Positions 3,171 to 61,746 of a stretch of 64,000 bases of DNA are shown here, piece by piece. Under the pieces are notes generated by a model. The model saw nothing but the letters and a program-made list of their open reading frames with translations. It was not told the DNA's origin and ran no database searches. Numbering within the stretch: position 1 is the stretch's first letter; each line of letters begins with the position of its first letter. The position numbers were made by a program, and so were the translations under genes. Source of the stretch: Clostridia bacterium (GTDB lineage Bacteria; Bacillota; Clostridia; Christensenellales; UBA3700); contig JAIDUV010000049.1 of the NCBI GenBank assembly GCA_029060025.1, positions 8,904 to 72,903 on the forward strand. The letters run 5' to 3'.

Positions 3171-4454
3171 TTATTTATCTAAACTGTCCAACGCCTGTTT
3201 TACGTCAGCAATCAAATCGTCGGCGTTTTCTATTCCCACCGAAAGTCTTATGAGTTCCGGAGATACTCCTGCGCTCTCAAGTTCTTTATCATTCATTTGG
3301 CGATGCGTTGCGCTTGCAGGGTGCAGACAACAACTGCGCGCGTCTGCTACGTGCGTCTCTATTGCGATAACCTTGAGACGTTTCATAACCTCTTCTGCGG
3401 CTTTTCTGCCGCCCTTAACGCCAAAACTCAACACTCCGCAAGAGCCGTTGGGCAAATACTTCTTAGCAAGTTGATAGTCTTTATCCCCCTCGAGATTGGG
3501 ATACTTGACCCACTCGACATTCTTGTGGCTTTGCAAAAACTGCGCTATTTTCAAAGCATTGGAGCAATGTCTCTCCATTCTTACGGCAAGGCTTTCAAGT
3601 CCGAGATTGAGTATGTAAGCGTTTTGCGGAGACTGAATAGACCCAAAGTCTCTCATAAGTTGAGCGGTTGCTTTGGTAATAAAGGCTCCGGCAAGTCCAA
3701 ACCTCTCGGTATATGTCACTCCGTGATAACTCTCGTCGGGAGTGCAAAGTCCCGGGAATTTATCCGGATATTTCGTCCAGTCGAATTTGCCGCTGTCCAC
3801 GATTGCTCCGCCAACGCCAGCGCCGTGTCCGTCCATATACTTTGTCGTGGAGTGCGTGACTATGTCTGCGCCCCATTCAAAAGGTCTGCAATTTATCGGC
3901 GTGGCAAAAGTATTGTCCACGACGAGCGGTACGCCGTGCGCGTGCGCCGCCTTTGCAAATCTCTCTATATCAAATACCACTATTGCAGGATTTGCGATTG
4001 TCTCGCCAAATACCGCCTTGGTGTTGGGTCTGAAAGCCTTTTGGAGTTCTTCATCCGTACAGTCGGGTTTAACAAACGTAAATTCAACACCCATTCTCTT
4101 CATAGTGACGGCAAAAAGATTGTACGTTCCGCCGTATATCGTCGACGACGCGACTACGTGGTCTCCGCAACCTGCGATATTGAATATTGCATAAAAGTTG
4201 GCTGCTTGTCCGGAAGAAGTCAACATTGCTGCGCTTCCGCCCTCGAGTTCGCATATCTTTTGCGCAACGTAGTCGTTGGTTGGATTTTGAAGACGGGTAT
4301 AAAAATATCCGCTTGCCTCAAGGTCAAACAACTTTGCCATTGCTTCGCTTGTGTCGTATTTAAATGTCGTGCTTTGAATTATTGGCACCTGTCTAGGTTC
4401 GCCGTTGCCGGGTCTATATCCGCCCTGTACGCATATTGTTTCGATTTTGCTCAT
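3171..4454 (-). CDS. metY: O-acetylhomoserine sulfhydrylase (PLP-dependent Cys/Met metabolism family)
   Basis: 427 aa. QSTTFKYD, SSGQAA and HSTTKYMDGHG (PLP-lysine motif). RBS aaaggag. Confidence 0.9.
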   Translation of the reverse strand: MSKIETICVQGGYRPGNGEPRQVPIIQSTTFKYDTSEAMAKLFDLEASGYFYTRLQNPTNDYVAQKICELEGGSAAMLTSSGQAANFYAIFNIAGCGDHVVASSTIYGGTYNLFAVTMKRMGVEFTFVKPDCTDEELQKAFRPNTKAVFGETIANPAIVVFDIERFAKAAHAHGVPLVVDNTFATPINCRPFEWGADIVTHSTTKYMDGHGAGVGGAIVDSGKFDWTKYPDKFPGLCTPDESYHGVTYTERFGLAGAFITKATAQLMRDFGSIQSPQNAYILNLGLESLAVRMERHCSNALKIAQFLQSHKNVEWVKYPNLEGDKDYQLAKKYLPNGSCGVLSFGVKGGRKAAEEVMKRLKVIAIETHVADARSCCLHPASATHRQMNDKELESAGVSPELIRLSVGIENADDLIADVKQALDSLDK

Positions 4455-4489
4455 ATTGCAACTCCTTTGGTAAGTTAAACTTTATATCT

Positions 4490-4520
4490 AGATTTCTCAA
4501 CCTTGCGTAAGTATCGTCAC
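4490..4520 (-). repeat. REP-like unit, degenerate, reverse orientation
   Basis: Reverse complement gtgacgatacttacgcaaggttgagaaatct matches the family tail, and its head resembles the gtcac...cttacgagc variant. Confidence 0.55.
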
Positions 4521-4571
4521 ATTGTTGATTATTATCTCAAGTGTGAGCATTACATTGCGAACGTGAATATC

Positions 4572-4598
4572 GTCATTCCGAGCGCAGTCGAGAAATCT
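4572..4598 (+). repeat. REP-like unit, short form (type A)
   Basis: gtcattccgagcgcagtcgagaaatct. The 27-nt form recurs at 9948, 12185, 26904 and at the end of the composites at 9172 and 23265. Confidence 0.85.
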
Positions 4599-4604
4599 AA
4601 TAAA

Positions 4605-5063
4605 TTATCTATATTCTTTGACGGCTCTGTCAATCTGTCTTTTCGCCTCTCTGTCTGCGATAGACTTTCGTTTGTCGTGCAACTCCTTGCCTTTTGCAAG
4701 TCCAACTTCCACCTTGACAAGTCCTTGACGGAAATAAATCTTGGTAGGCACGATAGTATACGACTTTTGCGTAACTGCGCCGCGCAGTTTGTCTATCTCT
4801 TTTTTGTGCAAAAGCAACTTGCGAGGACGCTTGGCGTCGACGTTGAAATAACTGCCTTTCTCATAAGGCTTTATATGCGCATTCATTAAGAAAACTTCTC
4901 CGCCTTTGACAATGCAAAAACTGTCTTTGAGATTGACTTGTCCCGCCCTTATTGACTTGACTTCGCAGCCGACCAAAGCAATACCCGCCTCATAGGTATC
5001 TTCTATGAAGTAATCAAAATAGGCTTTCTTGTTATTGTCGATTATCTTTATTCCGTCAGCCAT
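4605..5063 (-). CDS. smpB: SsrA-binding protein SmpB
   Basis: 152 aa. [38 protein letters not shown] is the canonical SmpB core. Confidence 0.95.
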
Positions 5064-5146: not shown

Positions 5147-5259
5147 CCCTAAAATAGCGAATTTTGATGATATTTTTATCGACGGTTGAGTGATAGCGTA
5201 CTTGCCGTACGCGCGCGAGACCGCTCGATAACAAATAGCGCAAAAGGCGCATTTTAGGC
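5147..5259 (-). repeat. Possible diverged third copy of the ~215-nt hairpin-rich element
   Basis: 5150-5165 is the same 16-mer (minus strand AAAATTCGCTATTTTA) as 35741-35756. 5196-5212 carries GCGTAC[ggcaa]GTACGC, like the CGTAC-loop-GTACG hairpin of the element, at similar spacing. The outer arms CCTAAAAT(A)GCG / CGCATTTTAGG can pair. Confidence 0.35.
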
Positions 5260-7113: not shown

Positions 7114-7181
7114 ATATCACCTTTTTGTTTTTCTCTCACAATTATTGCCATATTGCAAAAATTATATCCTTTTATACCGTA

Positions 7182-7219
7182 GAGATTTCTCCATTACGCT
7201 TTGCTGCAGCCGATATGAC
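7182..7219 (-). repeat. REP-like unit, long form, reverse orientation
   Basis: Reverse complement is gtcatatcggctgcagcaaagcgtaatggagaaatctc. Confidence 0.8.
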
Positions 7220-7230
7220 AAGATAAAAAA

Positions 7231-9171: not shown

Positions 9172-9253
9172 GCCATTGACGCTCGCACAAGACGCAACAT
9201 TGCTTGCTCGCTATGCCGTCACTACGTTCCTTACGAGCGCAGTCGAGAAATCT
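9172..9253 (+). repeat. Composite ~80-nt repeat (type B head + spacer + type A short form)
   Basis: gccattgacgctcgcacaagacgc...cttgctcgctatgccgtcactacgttccttacgagcgcagtcgagaaatct. Nearly identical to 23265-23344. Confidence 0.85.
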
Positions 9254-9273
9254 AATCAGTAGTTTAAAACGCT

Positions 9274-9947: not shown

Positions 9948-9974
9948 GTCATTTTGAACGCAGTCGAGAAATCT
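9948..9974 (+). repeat. REP-like unit, short form
   Basis: gtcattttgaacgcagtcgagaaatct. Confidence 0.8.
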
Positions 9975-10087
9975 ACTTCTTTTACTTGTCGTCCCAATAG
10001 TAGCAAACATTTGTTATACTTGATTCTGACTTGCATTGTCGACGCAAATATAATATAATATTTGAAAAATTAAGGAGAATAAAAATA

Positions 10088-12146: not shown

Positions 12147-12211
12147 GTCACTGCAACAATATTTTGTCACTGCGACTATATTATGTCATTTCGAGCGTAG
12201 TCGAGAAATCT
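12147..12211 (+). repeat. REP-like array: two head-only copies plus one complete short unit at 19-nt spacing
   Basis: gtcactgcaac (12147), gtcactgcgac (12166), then gtcatttcgagcgtagtcgagaaatct (12185-12211). Confidence 0.7.
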
Positions 12212-12218
12212 AATCCGC

Positions 12219-12821
12219 TTATTCCGCGTTGATTATCAACAATACGTATCCCTCTTTGACTTCTATCTCGCAGTCGCCGTCCAACAATTCGTTGCTCACG
12301 CCGAGAGGAAAAGTATTTGTCAAAGTCGCATCAGTCAAAGGGTATTTGCCATTTTTAATATACACTCCCTTTGCCGCATCAAAAGCAAACAGCGAAAAGG
12401 TCTGCCCTTTTCTTCCGCAGATAGTGCTTTTGCCTGTCACGACTTGCGCAATACAGTCTTTGCCTATCAAAGTGACTTTTACGCCTTTTTTTGCAAACTC
12501 GTAAGCGCATTGCAAATTGGCAAGCGTATGATCCAGTCTACCGCCCAACGCTCCATACACTTCAAATTCGTCGCAGCCTCTTCTGCGCGCCTCGTCAAAG
12601 GCGAGATACATATCGGTATAATCCTTGATAGGGTCGTGTCGCAGCGTAGCAATTCCCTCGGGAATATACCCAAGGGAATCAAAATCTCCTACTGCCAAGT
12701 CCACTCGGCATAAATCTTTGATATGAGCGTAACCGCCGTCTACGGCAATCACGATGTCTTGCTCTCCGACGCAAAATTGCTCGGCGCAAAACTCGCCGTT
12801 ACCCACAAACACGCATTTCAT
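12219..12821 (-). CDS. thiN: Thiamine pyrophosphokinase
   Basis: 200 aa. AVDGG...GDFDS...DHTLANL pattern of TPK. Confidence 0.8.
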   Translation of the reverse strand: MKCVFVGNGEFCAEQFCVGEQDIVIAVDGGYAHIKDLCRVDLAVGDFDSLGYIPEGIATLRHDPIKDYTDMYLAFDEARRRGCDEFEVYGALGGRLDHTLANLQCAYEFAKKGVKVTLIGKDCIAQVVTGKSTICGRKGQTFSLFAFDAAKGVYIKNGKYPLTDATLTNTFPLGVSNELLDGDCEIEVKEGYVLLIINAE

Positions 12822-23264: not shown

Positions 23265-23344
23265 GTCATTGACGCTCGCACAAGACGCATCTGCTTGCTC
23301 GCTATGCCGTCACTTCGTTCCTTACGAGCATAGTCGAGAAATCT
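23265..23344 (+). repeat. Composite ~80-nt repeat (type B head + type A short form)
   Basis: gtcattgacgctcgcacaagacgcatctgcttgctcgctatgccgtcacttcgttccttacgagcatagtcgagaaatct. Preceded by a head-only fragment gtaatctcgaccg at 23244. Confidence 0.85.
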
Positions 23345-23354
23345 CCTTCCTATT

Positions 23355-23381
23355 GTCATCTCGACCGTAGTGGAGAGATCT
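23355..23381 (+). repeat. REP-like unit, middle form
   Basis: gtcatctcgaccgtagtggagagatct. Confidence 0.8.
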
Positions 23382-23386
23382 AATCC

Positions 23387-23427
23387 TTTTTAATAAGTAC
23401 CGACAAAATGGAGCCTTGCAATATTTT
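23387..23427 (+). repeat. Type C repeat (TTTTAATAAGTACCGACAAAATGGAGCCTTGC...)
   Basis: 33 nt identical to 27017-27049 and about 41 nt similar. A partial third copy is at 30757-30776. It always lies next to a type A unit. Confidence 0.75.
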
Positions 23428-26903: not shown

Positions 26904-26930
26904 GTCACCTCGAGCACAGTCGAAAAATCT
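26904..26930 (+). repeat. REP-like unit, short form
   Basis: gtcacctcgagcacagtcgaaaaatct, starting 2 nt after the sulfatase stop. Confidence 0.75.
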
Positions 26931-26953
26931 CATCCGATTTTATTATACTGTTT

Positions 26954-26990
26954 AGATTTCTCCATTTCGCTTCGCTTCAGTCGAAATGAC
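26954..26990 (-). repeat. REP-like unit, long form, reverse orientation
   Basis: Reverse complement is gtcatttcgactgaagcgaagcgaaatggagaaatct. Tail-to-tail with the 26904 unit. Confidence 0.85.
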
Positions 26991-27016
26991 AAGATAATAG
27001 TGACGAATAAATTATC

Positions 27017-29478: not shown

Positions 29479-30459
29479 ATGGCTGGGCTAAAACAAAAGA
29501 TTAAGATACTAAAATTGCACGAAATTCTCTCCAATAAGAGTGACGAGGCAAATCCCCTGTCCACACAGGATCTGATAGAACTGCTAAAAGCCGAAGGCAT
29601 AAGCGTAGAGCGCAAGACGCTCTATGACGACATTGACCTGCTTAACAAATGCGGATATGAAGTTATGCAAATACGTAAAAAACAAAATATGTATTACGTC
29701 AGCGATAGAAATTTTGACACGGCGGAAGTGCGTATTCTCATTGATGCAGTGGAGGCGGCAAGTTTTATCACCAAAGAGAAAACCGACAGACTGACTGACA
29801 AAATTGCTTCGCTCGCAGGCTCGCACAAAGGCGAAGTTATCAAAAATAATATCGTCGTATTTGACACGACCAAGCGCGACAACGAACAAATCTATTACAA
29901 CGTATTCAATATAAACGAAGCAATAATAGCCAAGAAAAAAATCAGTTTTAAGTACTATAAATTCAACGCTAAAGGCGAAAAGATAGCGATGCACGGAGAC
30001 AAGCCGTATGTCGTCAATCCCATTGCTACTATGGTGAGCAACGACAACTACTATCTCATTTGCGAAAGTGACAAATACAGGAACATAGCGCATTACCGTA
30101 TCGACAGAATGGAAAACGTCAAAATTACCCGAGATGATTTAGTCCTTCCTGACGAACTCAAAGATTTTGACCCGCGCAAAAATAAAAAACAAATCTTTTC
30201 GATGTTCCTTGGCAAAACGCAAAATATCACCTTTGAAATCGAGCCCGACATAGTAGAAGTTATATTCGACAAGTTCGGTAAAACTACCAAACTCTCCCCT
30301 TACGGTGATAAGTATCGTTTTACGACAGAAATTCAAATAAGTGACGCTTTCTTCGGTTGGTGCTTGGGACTAGGCACAAAGATAGAAATCATCTCCCCAC
30401 GAGACGTCAAAGCGCAATATCTGCAACTGCTGCACAACGTAATCTGCAAATATAAATAA
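29479..30459 (+). CDS. HTH-WYL-WCX transcriptional regulator
   Basis: 326 aa. N-terminal wHTH (LSTQDLIELLKAEGISVERKTLYDDIDLL) and central WYL-type domain ending NIAHYRIDRMENVKI. Confidence 0.7.
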   Translation: MAGLKQKIKILKLHEILSNKSDEANPLSTQDLIELLKAEGISVERKTLYDDIDLLNKCGYEVMQIRKKQNMYYVSDRNFDTAEVRILIDAVEAASFITKEKTDRLTDKIASLAGSHKGEVIKNNIVVFDTTKRDNEQIYYNVFNINEAIIAKKKISFKYYKFNAKGEKIAMHGDKPYVVNPIATMVSNDNYYLICESDKYRNIAHYRIDRMENVKITRDDLVLPDELKDFDPRKNKKQIFSMFLGKTQNITFEIEPDIVEVIFDKFGKTTKLSPYGDKYRFTTEIQISDAFFGWCLGLGTKIEIISPRDVKAQYLQLLHNVICKYK

Positions 30460-30460
30460 C

Positions 30461-30675
30461 AGTTTGGCAAAAAGGGAGGCTAGTCAAATCCAAAATACGT
30501 CTTTTCCGCCAATACAGCATTTGGCTCACGCCGACGTACGGCTAGTACGACGACGCTCGTCAAAGACTATCTTGACATAAAATCCGTTATTTTATTCTTT
30601 GCCTATCTCCCTTCTCGCCAAACGAGATAGGGCTCATTCTTTTGAAACTGCCAACTAAACAATATTTTAATATAT
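30461..30675 (+). repeat. ~215-nt hairpin-rich element, copy L (candidate structured RNA or MITE)
   Basis: Begins 2 nt after the WYL stop. Aligns end to end with the reverse complement of 35657-35875 (roughly 85-90 % identical by eye). Several hairpins have conserved stems and variable loops. Confidence 0.8.
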
Positions 30676-30711
30676 AATAAGAAAATAAGAAATCAATATT
30701 TTTTACATTTT

Positions 30712-30749
30712 GTCATTTCGACTGTAGCGAAGCGTAATGGAGAAATCTC
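30712..30749 (+). repeat. REP-like unit, long form
   Basis: gtcatttcgactgtagcgaagcgtaatggagaaatctc, followed by a partial type C copy (30757-30776). Confidence 0.85.
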
Positions 30750-30837
30750 TATCCGCTTAATAAGTACCAATAAAATACGCTATTGCTCCCGACACCATCA
30801 AATTAAATGCAAAATTCATTGCCGAAACAGCCAAATA

Positions 30838-33497: not shown

Positions 33498-33547
33498 GTC
33501 ATTGACGCTCGCACGAGATGTCATTTCGACCGCAGTGGAGAAATCTC
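33498..33547 (+). repeat. Type B head fused to a type A middle-form unit
   Basis: gtcattgacgctcgcacgag + at + gtcatttcgaccgcagtggagaaatctc. Confidence 0.8.
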
Positions 33548-33556
33548 ATACGGATT

Positions 33557-33583
33557 AGACCTCTCGACTACGCTCGAGGTGAC
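33557..33583 (-). repeat. REP-like unit, reverse orientation
   Basis: Reverse complement is gtcacctcgagcgtagtcgagaggtct. Confidence 0.75.
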
Positions 33584-33613
33584 ATAGAAAATAAGTGAAG
33601 TGACAAATCTTTT

Positions 33614-33651
33614 GTCATTTCGACCGAAACGAAGCGTAATGGAGAAATCTC
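33614..33651 (+). repeat. REP-like unit, long form
   Basis: gtcatttcgaccgaaacgaagcgtaatggagaaatctc. Confidence 0.85.
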
Positions 33652-33700
33652 TATCAGTAAAAAAATATAAAATAATATAGACCATAAAAAGGGGTTAATT

Positions 33701-35485: not shown

Positions 35486-35656
35486 TTAATCGTTGCGATA
35501 GCAACATATAACTTATCTAGATTAAATTTAATTGCCTGTACCTATCCCCATTTCACGTTTGGCGAGAAAGGAGCGGCGTAAGTTTTTAACGCGCAGGAAT
35601 GTTTTCTATACAATGAAAACGAACGCGGGCTTAACCTTTCTGTACACAACTCCTTA

Positions 35657-35875
35657 ATATATTTTAAATCTTGTTTAGTTGGCAACCTCGAAAGAATAAG
35701 TTTCCCCTCTCGTTTGGCGAGAAGGGAGATAGGCAAAGAATAAAATAGCGAATTTTTTGTCAAGATGGTCTTCGGCGAGCGTCGTCGTACTTGCTGTACG
35801 TCGGCGTGAGCCAAAGGCTAGATTGGCGGAAAAGACGCATTTTAGTTTTGACTAGCCTCACTTCGAGGCAAACGC
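35657..35875 (-). repeat. ~215-nt hairpin-rich element, copy R (inverted relative to copy L)
   Basis: Its first ~18 nt overlap the last codons and TGA of the aspartate kinase gene. A partial extra copy of the CTCGCCAAACG hairpin lies at 35541-35575. Confidence 0.8.
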
Positions 35876-37180
35876 CTGATATATTGCGTTTATTGCTCTT
35901 TCATAATCATTCGTCGCAATACCCACAATAATGTTCATTTCGCTTGAACCTTGATCTATCATTCTGATGTTGATTTTTTCTTTAGCAAGCGCGCCTATAA
36001 GCGTTGCTGCGCTGCCCGGCTTAAAGGACATACCTTGACCGACTGTCGCAATCAAAGATATACCGCTCTTGATCTCGATATGGTCGGGATTGACGACTTT
36101 CTTTATACGCTCTATGACGACGTCTTCTTTGCCGGCAAGTTCGCTGTCGGCAATTACGATACTCATAGTGTCGATACCAGAAGGCATATGTTCAAAAGAA
36201 ATATTGTAATACTCAAGTACGGCAAGCACTTTGCGGACAAAGCCAAGTTCGCTATTCATCATAGACTTTTCGATATAGACTATGCTATAGCCCTTTTTGC
36301 CGGCAATACCAGTGATAACTCTCTTGCCAAGTTCTTTTTCGTCAAGATCGGCTACTATCATAGTGCCGTCTGCCGCCGGACAGAAAGTATTGCGAATATT
36401 GATTGGAATTTTGCTTATTCTTACAGGGAAAATCGACTCGGGGTGAAGCACGTTGGCGCCCATATAAGCCAGTTCTCTAAGTTCTTTATACGAAAGCGTG
36501 GCTATCGGCTTTGGATTTTCGACAATACGCGGGTCTGCCGACATAAATCCGTTGACGTCCGTCCAGTTTTCATATAGGCTTGCGCCTACTGCTCTTGCTA
36601 TTACAGCACCCGATACGTCAGAGCCTCCTCTGCTGAATGTGTGTACGATACCTGCCTCGTCTCCGCCGTAGAAACCCGGCACAACTGCTCTTTCGACATT
36701 AGCAAGCGCGCTCTTTACCTTCTCGTTGGTAAGTTCTGCTTGGAAATCTCCGTTTTCGTTGAAGACCATAATATCCTTGGCGTCAATAAAGGTATATCCC
36801 AGCACCTTTGCCATAATCACGGCAGAAAGGTACTCACCTCTCGACGCGCAAAACTCTGCCGAATCGTATTTATTCATCTCTTCTTCGACTTTGTCGAGAT
36901 AACTGTCAATATCAAGGTCTATTGCAAGGTCTGCGACAATACCTTTAAATCTATCTCTTATCTTATCAAAAGTATCTTTGCACTCGCCGTTGATTTGCAA
37001 GTCGTGATAACAAGCGTATAACATATCCGTGACCTTGTGGTCTTGCGAAAATCTCTTGCCCGGAGCCGACACTACGACGTATCTGCGTTTTGCGTCTTGC
37101 TTAATAATTTCGGCTACTTGAGTGATTGCCTTGGCGTCTGCCATTGACGTACCGCCGAATTTTGCCACTGTGATTGACAT
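35858..37180 (-). CDS. Aspartate kinase
   Basis: 440 aa. VAKFGGTSMADA, VVSAPGK, and ACT-type C-terminal repeats. Confidence 0.9.
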   Translation of the reverse strand: MSITVAKFGGTSMADAKAITQVAEIIKQDAKRRYVVVSAPGKRFSQDHKVTDMLYACYHDLQINGECKDTFDKIRDRFKGIVADLAIDLDIDSYLDKVEEEMNKYDSAEFCASRGEYLSAVIMAKVLGYTFIDAKDIMVFNENGDFQAELTNEKVKSALANVERAVVPGFYGGDEAGIVHTFSRGGSDVSGAVIARAVGASLYENWTDVNGFMSADPRIVENPKPIATLSYKELRELAYMGANVLHPESIFPVRISKIPINIRNTFCPAADGTMIVADLDEKELGKRVITGIAGKKGYSIVYIEKSMMNSELGFVRKVLAVLEYYNISFEHMPSGIDTMSIVIADSELAGKEDVVIERIKKVVNPDHIEIKSGISLIATVGQGMSFKPGSAATLIGALAKEKINIRMIDQGSSEMNIIVGIATNDYERAINAIYQAFASK

Positions 37181-38567: not shown

Positions 38568-38589
38568 ATTCTTTCCTTTGTTTTTATAA

Positions 38590-38626
38590 AGATTTCTCCA
38601 CGACGCTTCGCTTTGGTCGAAATGAC
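38590..38626 (-). repeat. REP-like unit, long form, reverse orientation
   Basis: Reverse complement is gtcatttcgaccaaagcgaagcgtcgtggagaaatct. Confidence 0.85.
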
Positions 38627-38725
38627 ACAGCAAGATTGCCGCAGGAACTCAAGCCGAGACTCGCCCAACAAAAATGCCAGACTATAAATAGTTTGGCATT
38701 AAAAATCTTTTTTAGGGAGAAAGGT

Positions 38726-45656: not shown

Positions 45657-45743
45657 GCCGAAGTGGTGGAATTGGCAGACGCGCCGGACTCAAAATCCGG
45701 TGATGGCGACATCGTGCGGGTTCAAGTCCCGCCTTCGGCACCA
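45657..45743 (+). tRNA. tRNA-Leu (anticodon CAA), class II, CCA encoded
   Basis: Acceptor GCCGAAG/CTTCGGC. Anticodon arm CCGGA-CTCAAAA-TCCGG. Long variable arm. T-arm GCGGG-TTCAAGT-CCCGC. Ends ACCA. Confidence 0.95.
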
Positions 45744-46607: not shown

Positions 46608-46637
46608 CAAAAAGACCTGCAAATGCAGGTCTTTTGC
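46608..46637. terminator. Terminator hairpin AAAGACCTGC-aaat-GCAGGTCTTT
   Basis: 10-bp perfect stem with T-runs on both strands. A near-identical hairpin lies at 48101-48124. Confidence 0.75.
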
Positions 46638-46652
46638 TTTACTGATTAATTA

Positions 46653-47321
46653 TCAGTTGTTATTATCTTCTGCGACTGGAGGCAACGATATGCTCGTGCT
46701 ACCCACGCCGGAAATCGTCAAAGTAAATTTAGTCGTCATACCGTCGTCACTATTTGTAATGGTCTGTTCTGCATACACGAATTTTCCGCCTATAATTTTG
46801 ATCAATACATTGTATCCTTCTAAGTTACCTACATAACCATTCTTGTCTTTATCATAGGTGAATTTGGAGAAATTATCAGAAAGTTGGTCAAAGTTACCAA
46901 TACTCAAATCAACGTTGTAACTAAGCTCTTCGCGAGACCATGTCTTTTCTTCTTCATCGTAGCTATATCGATATACCTTATCTCCCTCTTTTGCTACGTA
47001 AGATTCATCCACCTCTTTTTGCAAACCGTCTTCCTCGTCGATATATTCCGTAGTTTTCTTCGTATGAATCTTGTCACCGTCATACTCCGTAACCTCGGTT
47101 ATCGTAAATTCAATACCGTCTTCTGTTCCGGTCGTTACCTGATTAATCGTAGCATTTTTTACATCACTGTAATCAAACGCTTTTACCCACTGCTCGGCGG
47201 TTACCTCTTCGCCTTTCATATTTGCCGGATTTTTATCGCCGTTGCAAGCTACGAAAGACACTGCCATAACGATTGCCAAAACCATTATGGTAATTGCTGC
47301 CCAAAAATGTCTTTTTTTCAT
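46653..47321 (-). CDS. Lipoprotein, unknown function
   Basis: 222 aa. RBS ggaggtg. Lipobox FVAC. Acidic, beta-rich sequence. Confidence 0.75.
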   Translation of the reverse strand: MKKRHFWAAITIMVLAIVMAVSFVACNGDKNPANMKGEEVTAEQWVKAFDYSDVKNATINQVTTGTEDGIEFTITEVTEYDGDKIHTKKTTEYIDEEDGLQKEVDESYVAKEGDKVYRYSYDEEEKTWSREELSYNVDLSIGNFDQLSDNFSKFTYDKDKNGYVGNLEGYNVLIKIIGGKFVYAEQTITNSDDGMTTKFTLTISGVGSTSISLPPVAEDNNN

Positions 47322-48098: not shown

Positions 48099-48126
48099 AC
48101 AAAGACCTGCAAACGCAGGTCTTTCG
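48099..48126 (-). terminator. Terminator hairpin AAAGACCTGC-aaac-GCAGGTCTTT downstream of anSME
   Basis: Twin of the 46611-46634 hairpin (one loop difference). Confidence 0.6.
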
Positions 48127-48139
48127 ATTTGTTTTCTTA

Positions 48140-49231
48140 TTATTTTTTTTCGTTGATAAACACTCTAAACAACGGCAGACAAGCGCTAAAAAATTGTTTA
48201 TAGGCTTGGCAATAATCGCGATCTTCTTTTGACCTTTTGCAACCTCCGCCGCGGCATACGCGGAAGTAAGGACACTCTCGACATTGATTTGAAATATTAA
48301 AGGAACCGCGTGTAAATTCGTCGGCTTTTTTGCTGAATGCCAACTGTGTGAAATCTTCGTTATTGACGTTGCCTAGCAACCATTCGTCCAAGCAGTAAAA
48401 ATCGCAGGGATAGACGTTGCCGTTGCCCTCAACGACAAATTGGCGGGAACAAAAACCGTTCATACCGCATTGCTCTGCGTGTCCGCCCAAGAACAATCTA
48501 ACGTAATTGTCAAACTGTCGAATACTGACGTACTCTCCCTTAACGTAGTCTTTTACGTATAGATTGAATAATTTAATCAAAAACGACGAGTATTGCTCGA
48601 CGGTCATATATAAATTGCTTTCGCTCCTATCCCCAAAAGGGCGCAAACACGGAATGAATTGCAAGTATTTGATGTCTTGGCTCTTAAAATATTTGTATAC
48701 TGACTCGATATGATCCGCCGTATATCCGGTGGCAACAATCAAGACGTTGAAATCCACTTTGCGCGCTTTAAGCAAATCCATAGTTGCTTTAACTTTTGGA
48801 AAGGTATAATTCAGATTGCTATCTAATCTAAAGCGGTTGGCGTCTTGGTCTCCGTCAAGGCTCAATCCCAACAAAAATTTGTTTTCCACAAAAAAGTCTG
48901 CCCATTCCTCGTCAATCAACGTGCCGTTGGTCTGCATATTGTAATATACCTTGCAGCCTTGCGTATTATACTTATTTACCGTCGCAATAAAGTCTTTGAA
49001 GAACTCTTTGCCTGCAAACAACGGTTCGCCGCCTTGAAAGGCAAAATAAATGCTTCCGCCCTCGCAAAAAGCGAGGGCTTTTTTTATCAGATTTTCCGCC
49101 GTACTTGGCGTCATAATTCCATAAGACGAAGCCTCTCTAGACTGCGCCACGGAATGGTAGAAACAATATTTGCATCGCATATTACATATACTCGACGCAG
49201 GTTTTATCATAATGGATAAATCTTTTTTCAT
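48140..49231 (-). CDS. Anaerobic sulfatase-maturating enzyme (radical SAM/SPASM)
   Basis: 363 aa. CNMRCKYCFY (CxxxCxxC) and a C-terminal Cys-rich SPASM region (CRECPYFRVCRGGC). Adjacent to a sulfatase gene. Confidence 0.85.
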   Translation of the reverse strand: MKKDLSIMIKPASSICNMRCKYCFYHSVAQSREASSYGIMTPSTAENLIKKALAFCEGGSIYFAFQGGEPLFAGKEFFKDFIATVNKYNTQGCKVYYNMQTNGTLIDEEWADFFVENKFLLGLSLDGDQDANRFRLDSNLNYTFPKVKATMDLLKARKVDFNVLIVATGYTADHIESVYKYFKSQDIKYLQFIPCLRPFGDRSESNLYMTVEQYSSFLIKLFNLYVKDYVKGEYVSIRQFDNYVRLFLGGHAEQCGMNGFCSRQFVVEGNGNVYPCDFYCLDEWLLGNVNNEDFTQLAFSKKADEFTRGSFNISNQCRECPYFRVCRGGGCKRSKEDRDYCQAYKQFFSACLPLFRVFINEKK

Positions 49232-56350: not shown

Positions 56351-57304
56351 ATGCCACTCGTAACATCAAAAGAAATGTTTAAGAAAGCGTATGCAGGTCA
56401 CTATGCTATCGGCGCTTTCAACGTAAACAATATGGAAATTATTCAAGGTATCGTAGAAGCCGCTACTGAAGAAAACGCTCCGCTTATTCTTCAAGTATCT
56501 TCCGGCGCAAGAAAATACGCTAACCCAACTTATCTTCGCAAAATGGTTGAGGCTGCTGAAGAAGTAAGCCATCTTCCTATCTGTCTCCACCTCGACCACG
56601 GCGACACTTTTGAACTTTGCAAAAGTTGTATCGACGGCGGATTTAATTCCGTAATGATCGACGGTAGCCACCACTCTTTCAAGGACAATATCGAATTGAC
56701 AAAGAGAGTTGTTGAGTACGCTCACGACCACGGCGTAACCGTAGAAGGCGAACTTGGACGTCTTGCAGGCGTTGAAGACGACGTAAAAGTATCGGCAGAA
56801 GACAGTTCTTATACCCGTCCAGAAGAAGTTGAAGAATTTGTAACCAAGACTGGCGTTGACTCCCTTGCAATTGCAATCGGAACTTCACACGGCGCATTCA
56901 AATTCAAGCCGGGCACTAAGCCACAACTTCGTTTTGACATTCTCGAAGAAGTAAGCAAGAGACTTCCCGAGTTCCCAATAGTTCTCCACGGCGCATCTTC
57001 CGTACCTCAAGAGTTCGTCAAGATTGTCAACGAAAACGGCGGCAAACTCAACGACGCTATCGGCGTACCTGAAGAAATGCTCCGTCAGGCTGCATCTATG
57101 GCAGTATGTAAGATCAACATCGACTCTGACCTCAGAATGGCTTGCACTGCAGGTATCCGCAAGCACTTCACAGAGCATCCGGATCACTTCGACCCAAGAC
57201 AATACCTCGGCGACGCAAGAGCCAACATCAAGTATATCGTTAAGCACAAACTTGTCAACGTACTCGGTTGCGCAGGCAAGGCTGACGAAATTCTCGGCAA
57301 ATAA
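56351..57304 (+). CDS. fba: Class II fructose-1,6-bisphosphate aldolase
   Basis: 317 aa. YAIGAFNVNNME, LHLDHG, GELG, GTSHGAFKF. Confidence 0.95.
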   Translation: MPLVTSKEMFKKAYAGHYAIGAFNVNNMEIIQGIVEAATEENAPLILQVSSGARKYANPTYLRKMVEAAEEVSHLPICLHLDHGDTFELCKSCIDGGFNSVMIDGSHHSFKDNIELTKRVVEYAHDHGVTVEGELGRLAGVEDDVKVSAEDSSYTRPEEVEEFVTKTGVDSLAIAIGTSHGAFKFKPGTKPQLRFDILEEVSKRLPEFPIVLHGASSVPQEFVKIVNENGGKLNDAIGVPEEMLRQAASMAVCKINIDSDLRMACTAGIRKHFTEHPDHFDPRQYLGDARANIKYIVKHKLVNVLGCAGKADEILGK

Positions 57305-57322
57305 TAACAGATTTACAAATAT

Positions 57323-57353
57323 AAAAGGTATAGACGGCTCGTCTATACCTTTT
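57323..57353 (+). terminator. Terminator of fba
   Basis: AAAAGGTATAGAC ggctc GTCTATACCTTTT, a perfect 13-bp stem. Confidence 0.85.
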
Positions 57354-57365
57354 ATTTATTACATT

Positions 57366-57402
57366 GTCATTTCGACCGAAACACAGTGAAGCGGAGAAAT
57401 CT
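57366..57402 (+). repeat. REP-like unit, long form (last copy in window)
   Basis: gtcatttcgaccgaaacacagtgaagcggagaaatct. Confidence 0.8.
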
Positions 57403-57463
57403 AATCCTTTATGTTAAATAAAAATAGATGGGCAATTGCCCATCTACTTTTGCCAAACAAATT

Positions 57464-61483: not shown

Positions 61484-61499
61484 ATTGAAAACGAATAAT

Positions 61500-61746
61500 A
61501 TTGCAAGGTTGCTTTAGGACGTATATCATAAACGTTCTATGCATTAAAAAGGGAACGGAGTGAAAATCTCCGACAGCCCCCGCTACTGTAACGGCTACGA
61601 ACGCTCAATAACACTGAAAAATCGGGAAGAGAGCGCTAGGTATGAAGCCGTAAGTCAGGAGACCTGCCTGTAATATAACAAGACGGATTTCGGTGGGAGA
61701 TCAAGTCGTGGCATTGCCATTCCCGCCCTACTCAGGGCGTTTTTTA
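61500..61746 (+). promoter_or_regulatory. Cobalamin (B12) riboswitch with intrinsic terminator
   Basis: AAAAGGGAACGGAGTGAAAATCTCCGACAGCCCCCGCTACTGTAA core. B12 box AAGTCAGGAGACCTGCC (61652-61668). Terminator CGCCCT actc AGGGCG + T6 (61724-61746). Confidence 0.9.

Follow-up and report, generated by a model that had tools for sequence, protein, structure and literature searches.

A 162-nt hairpin repeat family located at gene ends in a lineage of uncultured gut Clostridia

The window, a 64,000-nt stretch of contig JAIDUV010000049.1 from a Clostridia bacterium (assembly GCA_029060025.1), carries two full copies, termed here L and R, and a third, shortened copy of a multi-copy DNA repeat family that is uncatalogued and previously undescribed. 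The repeat unit, or core, folds into a hairpin and typically lies just behind the stop codon of a housekeeping gene. The family is best read, with a probability of about 0.55, as a non-coding, non-autonomous mobile hairpin repeat, closest to the REPINs and to the miniature insertion sequences of the ERIC, EFAR, and bcr1 types.

The core of copy L spans 162 nt at 30462..30623 (structural strand minus, gene sense plus) and has the ends GTTTGGC...GCCAAAC. That of copy R spans 162 nt at 35712..35873 (structural strand plus, gene sense minus). The covariance model R1 scores L at 172.7 bits on the minus strand vs 73.2 on the plus strand, and R at 178.2 bits on the plus strand vs 72.0 on the minus strand. 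A repeat search returns the two copies as an inverted pair (30462-30627 vs 35708-35873, 166 nt, 89% complementary), together with a second block of 38 nt (30633-30670 with 35663-35700, 82%). An initial annotation of the window had taken L for the reverse complement of R at 85-90% identity, and blastn bears this out, with 212 nt aligned at 86.3% identity (E = 3e-62). The same annotation had put the unit at ~215 nt; L and R are indeed both full copies, but the core is 162 nt, to which a tail of ~35-40 nt is added in L and R. The resemblance of L and R goes beyond chance because ~85 further copies are found in other genomes.

The third copy (5150..5259, structural strand plus, gene sense minus) has kept the inner hairpin and lost the outer arms. 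R1 matches it with 38.8 bits (E = 1.2e-7) over model positions 30-136 only, and nhmmer finds it at 5150-5257 on the minus strand (E = 1.5e-7). Of its two neighbours, both encoded on the minus strand, a secG-like gene has its terminator T-run 4 nt before the copy, and an smpB-like gene follows downstream. The diverged copy that had been suspected 3' of secG is therefore real and co-oriented with that gene, but it is a partial one. A comparable partial match, also to model positions 30-136, is present in one of the related loci (L005). A weak covariance-model match at 57292-57381 was rejected, being an ordinary terminator and not a member of the family.

No open reading frame (ORF) is conserved among the copies, as had been noted at first, since all frames contain stops. 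The ATG of R is likewise ATA in L, and this ATG is present in R and in many further copies. A 90-aa ORF with a TTG start (35542-35814, minus strand) overlaps copy R across repeat sequence; no counterpart was noticed in other copies, where no systematic check was made, and this ORF is very probably not a gene.

A pattern scan over one genome per species returned 68 loci, 66 of which belong to ~14 uncultured metagenome-assembled genomes (MAGs) labelled Clostridia, Clostridiales, or Christensenella, with up to 13 loci per MAG. Over those loci, nhmmer and the covariance model together delineate ~85 distinct copies, nearly all of them full length (158-165 nt). Their flanks are unrelated between copies, as seen in the first 59 full copies. 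The element had not been recognised as a known family, and Rfam agrees, giving no match at the gathering threshold; permissive Rfam scans of both regions on both strands yield noise only, the best being MIR868 with 29.8 bits vs a gathering score of 200. No match was found in plasmid, phage, or IMG/VR collections. A metagenome scan using the ends and apex only gave 11 loci, which are chance matches, as none of them (0 of 11) fits the covariance model. The distribution of the family appears limited to a single lineage of gut Clostridia.

Core fold and constrained strand

The core is constant in length: most of the first 59 full copies have 162 nt, and the range is 158-164. Its ends, 5'-GTTYGRC...GYCRAAC-3', lie within arms of ~25 nt. 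The apex, CGTAC-N5-GTACG, is invariant; the initial alignment was picked with the apex and A-type motifs in the search pattern, making an ascertainment bias possible, and the invariance extends to divergent B-type copies that this pattern did not select. The profile matches each copy on its opposite strand too (E = 1e-13), so that the core is one long imperfect palindrome.

RNAalifold predicts for the alignment a single hairpin of 53 pairs, 41 of which display compensatory double changes. Alignment cells at paired positions are able to pair in 95.3% of cases vs 85.6% in shuffles, and the 41 double-changed pairs are to be compared with 19.3 +/- 2.1 in shuffles (0/500 reaching the observed value) and with 19-24 in slid registers. 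The covariation score is 0.332, vs 0.07-0.09 in controls. Terminal pairs also covary within single copies, as in the ATGCGA...TCGCAT ends of locus L044. The conserved fold is thus a single rod of ~75 bp with a freely covarying interior. In contrast, the small local hairpins with intact stems that had been proposed at first find no backing in the alignment: they show 9 double-changed pairs vs 9-12 in slid controls, and the apex stem never varies.

This fold is constrained on one strand. For the region of copy L (30457-30680), the RNA minimum free energy is -80.5 kcal/mol (z -7.3) on the minus strand vs -55.5 (z -4.3) on the plus strand; for that of copy R (35650-35878), it is -88.5 kcal/mol (z -6.6) on the plus strand vs -64 (z -3.1) on the minus strand. 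In 59/59 cores, folding is better on the strand antisense to the upstream gene, with a mean of -79.5 vs -56.3 kcal/mol. The structure had initially been described in the sense orientation, but the constraint acts on the reverse complement. The alignment gives the same picture, as 95.3% of the cells can pair on the antisense strand vs 87.3% on the sense strand, where G:U pairs of the antisense strand turn into A.C mismatches; G:U cells amount to 9.7% vs 1.8% for A:C cells, a 5.5-fold excess. Conserved U:G pairs occur at columns 48:120, 50:118, and 59:109, and columns 41-42 form a tandem G.A internal loop with columns 126-127. With DNA parameters, the asymmetry is retained (-35.1 vs -20.6 for the R core), and RNA and single-stranded DNA are therefore not distinguished. 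Deamination with its usual bias, on the leading or the non-template strand, would yield the opposite asymmetry; hence, the one observed looks selected rather than mutational. The initial proposal of a candidate structured RNA or miniature inverted-repeat transposable element (MITE) is thus kept as regards the hairpin repeat, for which both readings are viable, and amended as regards its fold and strand.

Placement at gene ends and turnover of sites

The copies are located at gene ends with a nearly absolute polarity. In counts obtained with a crude ORF caller and including some orthologous copies, and hence not fully independent, the upstream gene is co-oriented in 59/63 full copies. Among the 50 copies for which both neighbours were called, 42 start between -20 and +12 nt from the upstream stop codon, mostly at 0-8 nt, vs 4.9 copies expected from uniform placement in the gap. 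Orientation in tandem-gene contexts is 36:1, and a co-oriented gene lies downstream in 36/50 copies. A minority of the copies is found 4-6 nt past a terminator T-run, with unchanged polarity. The upstream genes, named by inspection of translated ORFs with no domain search, are diverse housekeeping genes, including pfkA, ftsY, ffh, argS, ilvC, ilvD, secA, dnaJ, mnmE, glpK, pcrA, and the aspartate kinase gene. The copies are solitary behind them and do not form arrays.

The left flank is T-rich and C-poor, and no other flank motif is seen. Target-site duplications of 1-8 nt are not more numerous than in shuffled flank pairings. A plain MITE, which would combine random orientation with target-site duplications, is at odds with the 36:1 orientation and the lack of such duplications. 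A guide-target relation between flank and arm was also considered; the top mutual information is 0.354 vs a null 95th percentile of 0.333, which was judged to indicate no relation. The element has the appearance of a small mobile element that is placed with unusual precision.

In each 4-kb bin of the window, the GC skew is negative, and 45 of the 62 ORFs with 90 aa or more lie on the minus strand. From this uniform skew and ORF bias, the window lies within one replichore, with the minus strand leading. A replication-linked orientation, through lagging-strand single-stranded DNA, is ruled out, as the skew is uniform yet L and R are opposite; the polarity therefore follows the gene and not the replication fork.

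Copy L follows a WYL/WCX-domain regulator gene (29479..30459, plus strand; Pfam WYL 6.7e-10, WCX 8.3e-5), and copy R an aspartate kinase gene (35858..37180, minus strand; Pfam AA_kinase 1.9e-36, ACT_9 8.7e-22). The TAA stop of the former occupies 30457-30459, and L begins 2 nt further on. The TGA stop of the latter (35860-35858) is inside R, the first 16 nt of which (35873-35858) code for the kinase end ...F-A-S-K and the stop. Both early observations, that the copies start at stop codons in the orientation of the genes and that R begins with the last kinase codons, are thereby upheld, the extent of the latter being 16 nt and not ~18. The kinase C-terminus reads AFASK in the window, and most relatives have AFQK or AFQN instead. 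Among named relatives at the protein level, a Christensenellales aspartate kinase is the closest (76% identity), and an exact look-up of the WYL protein of the window returned no record. Downstream of R lies the remnant of an older copy of the B-type subfamily (35557..35627, minus strand). It can be aligned to the right half of the full B-type copy found at this kinase site in the related contig L075, and an nhmmer partial match at 35550-35573 overlaps it.

Orthologous sites reveal gain, loss, and replacement of the element. Kinases 84-89% identical have an AFQK* end followed by ordinary terminators and no element. Those 95-98% identical display four different states at the site: a right-end remnant only, of ~40 nt, in L072-74; a full copy of the B type in L075; in L085, a B-type right end behind an A-type copy; and, in the window, an A-type copy with its tail followed by a B-type right half. 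At the WYL site, an A-type copy (the window), an A-type copy with its apex deleted (L091), a decayed relic (L087-89), and a B-type copy at the same position (L090) are found. As L090 and L075 share a contig, one genome is B-type at both the kinase and WYL sites. In one MAG, the full copy at the IlvC and IlvD sites is of the B type and is separated by T or C from the initial 25-27 nt of an A-type 5' arm; in relatives, these sites hold a full A-type copy. Junctions made of a full copy, T, and a 5'-arm remnant also occur at L018, L012, L041, and L007, that of L018 having the form ...GYCRAAC-N-GTTYGRC.... Such nested junctions indicate that new copies land at the gene-proximal edge and that old ones decay to single arms. 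On this comparison of sequences, the family is clearly mobile or turning over.

A second type of instability was observed at the kinase gene end in three close relatives (L069, L070, and L071, at ~4260-4900, past the kinase stop). It is a tandem duplication of 2 to 4 units of ~128 nt, each comprising the last ~50 nt of the aspartate-kinase gene and ~75 nt downstream. Four units are present in L070, L069 holds a run of N, and the terminal pseudo-copy ends with AFKK* instead of AFQN*.

Eight copies, L and R included, possess an optional tail of ~38 nt (TTATTCT, 8-9 nt, GCCAAC) located 3' of the core in the gene sense; the tail-bearing copies, six besides L and R, span three subfamilies (A, B, and C). 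The tail of L (30624..30664, plus strand; 82% shared with R) reads GAGATAGGG, then ATTCTTTT, 8-9 nt, and GCCAAC TAAACAATA. That of R (35669..35711, minus strand) reads GAGAGGGGA, then TTATTCTTTC, then GCCAAC TAAACAAGA. The compensatory pairing of the ends that had been suggested, between the 5' arm and the tail, is found in L and R only and is absent from the six other tail-bearing copies. A sense-strand three-way junction built from the 5' arm and the tail was rejected likewise, being possible in L and R and not in L002, L007, L046, L062, or L064.

A terminator-like hairpin arises in R where the first 10 nt of the tail pair with the 3' arm of the core: this hairpin, TCCCTTCTCGCCAAACGAGAGGGGA, made up of the 3' arm and of GAGAGGGGA behind it, is flagged as a terminator on the minus strand at 35727-35703. 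As a general feature of the family, such an arm-flank terminator is not convincing, with 21 copies vs a mean of 15.8 and up to 22 after shuffling. The tails also carry outward promoter-like sequences (35656-35685, minus strand; 30640-30675, plus strand). That of R consists of TTGCCA, an 18-nt spacer, and TATATT; that of L, CTGCCA and then TATAAT, was recognised by eye and is unflagged in a promoter scan. These sequences face the convergent downstream gene, and such matches are not above shuffled expectation.

A proposed mobile hairpin repeat and its alternatives

If the family is a mobile hairpin repeat, a strand-specific single-stranded hairpin, of DNA or RNA, would be the form recognised by a putative enzyme supplied in trans, which would copy or insert the element via the folded antisense strand. 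New copies enter at the gene-proximal edge of occupied sites, with fixed polarity and without target duplication, older copies decay to single arms, and subfamilies swap at the same site. The host mRNA would gain a long mismatched hairpin in its 3' untranslated region (3'-UTR). In some copies, the 3' arm may pair with the following GAGAGGGGAG and T-run, thereby creating an intrinsic terminator. Judging from these predicted pairings, a further role of the element as a terminator module or a stabiliser of 3' ends is probable.

Several observations weigh against this reading. No mobilising protein was found by tblastn with IS200 TnpA and RAYT/YafM over the window and 91 loci (661 kb); the IS200 TnpA and YafM queries gave only chance matches (E >= 0.4), and this test is weak because the query sequences were approximate. 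The ends lack a GTAG or CGTC tag, and the 162-nt unit is much longer than a repetitive extragenic palindromic (REP) doublet. We know of no REPIN or MITE family that is so tightly stop-adjacent and polar. Furthermore, polarity is kept even in copies past a terminator. As selection on mRNA hardly explains it there, a targeting step is implied; to our knowledge, no known family explains a polarity that persists beyond terminators, and this feature leaves room for an attC-like folded-strand recombination site, an antisense scaffold RNA, and target-primed reverse transcription. Finally, at orthologous sites holding the same subfamily, the element is often conserved above the adjacent upstream coding DNA (96/79, 91/78, 90/80, and 98/90% identity), which could reflect a host-level function instead of selfish spread.

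It is possible, although unlikely, that gene-end placement results from a mechanism sensing polarity through the end of translation or transcription, or else that each copy is a scaffold-plus-antisense RNA acting at the stop region of the neighbouring gene. Polarity-sensing placement might involve a recombinase or HUH enzyme acting on the folded antisense strand, or a rod-shaped RNA whose reverse transcription is primed at the T-rich ends of genes. If true, it would define a new class of hairpin elements homing to gene ends.

Somewhat less probable still is a cis-acting 3'-UTR RNA on the sense strand, serving as a protector of mRNA 3' ends or as a translation-sensitive antiterminator/terminator switch that would control read-through to the next gene by an alternative pairing of the 3' arm with GAGAGGGGAG and a U-run. 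Such an RNA would account for elements that begin 0-8 nt past stop codons in the sense orientation, for the 36/50 copies preceding a co-oriented gene, for the terminator-like hairpin of 3' arm and flank flagged in R, and for the copy-specific complementarity of this hairpin in ~15-20 copies, as well as for an element often better conserved than the neighbouring coding DNA. Pairing, however, is kept on the opposite strand (95.3% vs 87.3% for the sense strand, the antisense strand being the best in 59/59 cores), and the arm-flank complementarity of 21 copies stays within the shuffled range (mean 15.8, maximum 22). Several copies lie past a complete terminator and thus outside the mRNA, and rapid gain, loss, and replacement among near-identical host genes are atypical of a regulatory element.

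The preference for the antisense strand would fit an antisense RNA gene, that is, a structured scaffold whose 3' continuation complements the adjacent stop-codon region and would act as a gene-specific regulator. The U:G wobbles (48:120, 50:118, 59:109) and the tandem G.A loop are RNA-like marks, on the antisense strand the element ends directly against the reverse-complemented stop codon, and promoter-like hexamers occur upstream on the folding strand (30696-30669 for L, 35586-35614 for R). Such promoter-like matches, however, are not above shuffled expectation, and the flanks on that side are unrelated among copies, implying no conserved promoter. The antisense strand has no U-run after the hairpin, and G:T pairs and tandem G.A are tolerated in single-stranded DNA too, for which the asymmetry also holds. 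This RNA gene is accordingly held to be improbable.

An integron attC-type site, at which a tyrosine recombinase would exchange or insert hairpin cassettes at gene ends via the bottom strand, is considered just as improbable. It shares with the family a location directly after the stop of a co-oriented ORF, a folded antisense strand, a structure conserved above the sequence, the lack of target duplication, and a newest copy nearest to the upstream gene. Ends of the GTT/AAC type, with a GTTGGGC in three copies that fits GTTRRRY, and the presence of different subfamilies at the same site in different genomes also fit. Against it, the end boxes are inverted (GTTYGRC 5' and GYCRAAC 3'), 162 nt is above the usual attC range, the copies are solitary behind essential housekeeping genes instead of forming arrays, and no integrase was noticed near any copy, where no systematic search was made.

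A retroelement resembling short interspersed elements (SINEs), in which a folding-strand RNA from master copies would undergo target-primed reverse transcription at a T-rich 3'-OH near gene ends, is the least plausible: it agrees with the T-rich, C-poor left flank, with native kinase GCN TTT codons merging with the GTTT of the element in a microhomology-like manner, with left-end-only remnants of 12-30 nt resembling abortive 5'-truncated insertions, with the lack of a fixed target motif, and with a structural constraint on the would-be RNA template strand, but no reverse transcriptase was identified, no A-tail is present, right-end-only remnants exist as well, and target priming does not explain terminal pairs that covary inside single copies (ATGCGA...TCGCAT, L044).

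Other features of the window and comparison with known systems

In addition to the 162-nt family, the window contains a second, much shorter repeat family (GTCAYYTCGAC, 8-25 nt, GGAGARRTCT), with at least 15 copies in both orientations. Its sites are 2115-2184, 4572-4608, 7172-7226, 9227-9263, 9948-9984, 12185-12221, 23318-23391, 26904-26997, 30712-30781, 33520-33683, 38579-38633, and 57366-57435. The stem seems to covary (ATTTC/GAAAT vs ACCTC/GAGGT), and the repeat, which resembles a REP-type element belonging to the same genomes, often adjoins the 162-nt element in the window and in related loci. A further repeat, TGCTTGCTCGCTATGCCGTCACT.CGTTCCTTACGAGC..., is found at 9201-9253 and 23292-23344 (94% identical) and also at 4546-4598. 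It is fused to the preceding repeat, with which it may form a composite repeat unit, and similar sequence is present in L077, L080, and L090. Two terminator-like hairpins (AAAGACCTGCAAAYGCAGGTCTTT) at 46611-46653 and 48101-48143 share 79% identity over 43 nt and lie behind different genes. A cobalamin riboswitch aptamer (RF00174, 99 bits, E = 1.6e-23) is located at 61488-61685 on the plus strand, and the sole tRNA of the window, tRNA-Leu(CAA), at 45657-45743 on the same strand.

REPINs consist of REP doublets, form hairpins, and owe their mobility to RAYT transposases, Y1 HUH enzymes whose single-copy gene has the repeats on its flanks. REPINs possess conserved inverted ends, a length-constrained hairpin interior, frequent compensatory changes, and asymmetric excision footprints (Bertels & Rainey 2011, PMC3116915). 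REPs are mostly found downstream of ORFs, can supply stop codons, and are recognised by a GTAG (or CGTC) tag at one end of a palindromic unit of 20-40 nt (PMC3733652). The 162-nt family resembles REPINs in being non-coding, extragenic, and multi-copy, with inverted conserved ends, a constrained length, and a hairpin with compensatory changes. It also shares with them the lack of a classical target duplication, asymmetric excision or decay products, and lineage-specific, vertically inherited populations. In contrast to REPINs, it forms one palindrome of 162 nt, has neither tag, and is placed tightly at stop codons with a fixed polarity. We are not aware of any REPIN whose structure is constrained on the antisense strand relative to the upstream gene.

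Firmicutes and enterobacteria harbor palindromic miniature insertion sequences such as EFAR of Enterococcus (~170 bp), bcr1 of Bacillus cereus (~155 bp), and ERIC/IRU (127 bp) (PMC3733652). Compared by description only, they and the 162-nt family belong to the same class of 130-170 bp, with long stem-loops located near ORF ends, where these sequences are co-transcribed, and with sites that vary between filled and empty. EFAR is said, in work by Venditti et al. of 2007, to target terminator-like stem-loops, to delete part of them, and to lie within 0-20 bp of ORF ends. Unlike the 162-nt family, bcr1 has a target duplication. We know of no report of a near-absolute polarity or of a strand-specific covariation for EFAR, bcr1, or ERIC.

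With classical MITEs, the family shares a short, non-coding unit, ~85 copies, and terminal inverted repeats, although target-site duplications do not flank its copies. No longer element with these ends, as a cognate autonomous insertion sequence (IS) would be, was seen in the 661 kb of loci. Unlike the IS200/IS605-derived PATE, it displays no conserved 4-5-nt target 5' of the left end and no guide-target relation. It is similar to attC in following the stop of a co-oriented ORF, in its bottom-strand fold, in a structure conserved above the sequence, and in new units that lie nearest to the upstream end. However, it is longer and solitary behind housekeeping genes, without arrays beside intI/attI. 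The top strand of attC carries R'' (RYYYAAC) at its 5' end and R' (GTTRRRY) at its 3' end; the boxes of the 162-nt family are inverted with respect to these on both strands, and membership in attC was rejected on this basis.

Most knowledge of interspersed palindromic repeats comes from Proteobacteria and a few Firmicutes, and their movement and choice of sites are poorly understood. Even if selfish, the family alters many housekeeping genes of an abundant uncultured gut lineage in their 3'-UTRs and, in some cases, in their final codons, and it would confound terminator and small RNA prediction in these genomes. If its targeting is mechanistic and not selected, a machinery recognising gene ends would be involved. 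Among such repeats, the 162-nt family offers an unusually clean signal, with a fixed length, a covarying rod, a 36:1 polarity, and sites that are re-used between near-identical strains.

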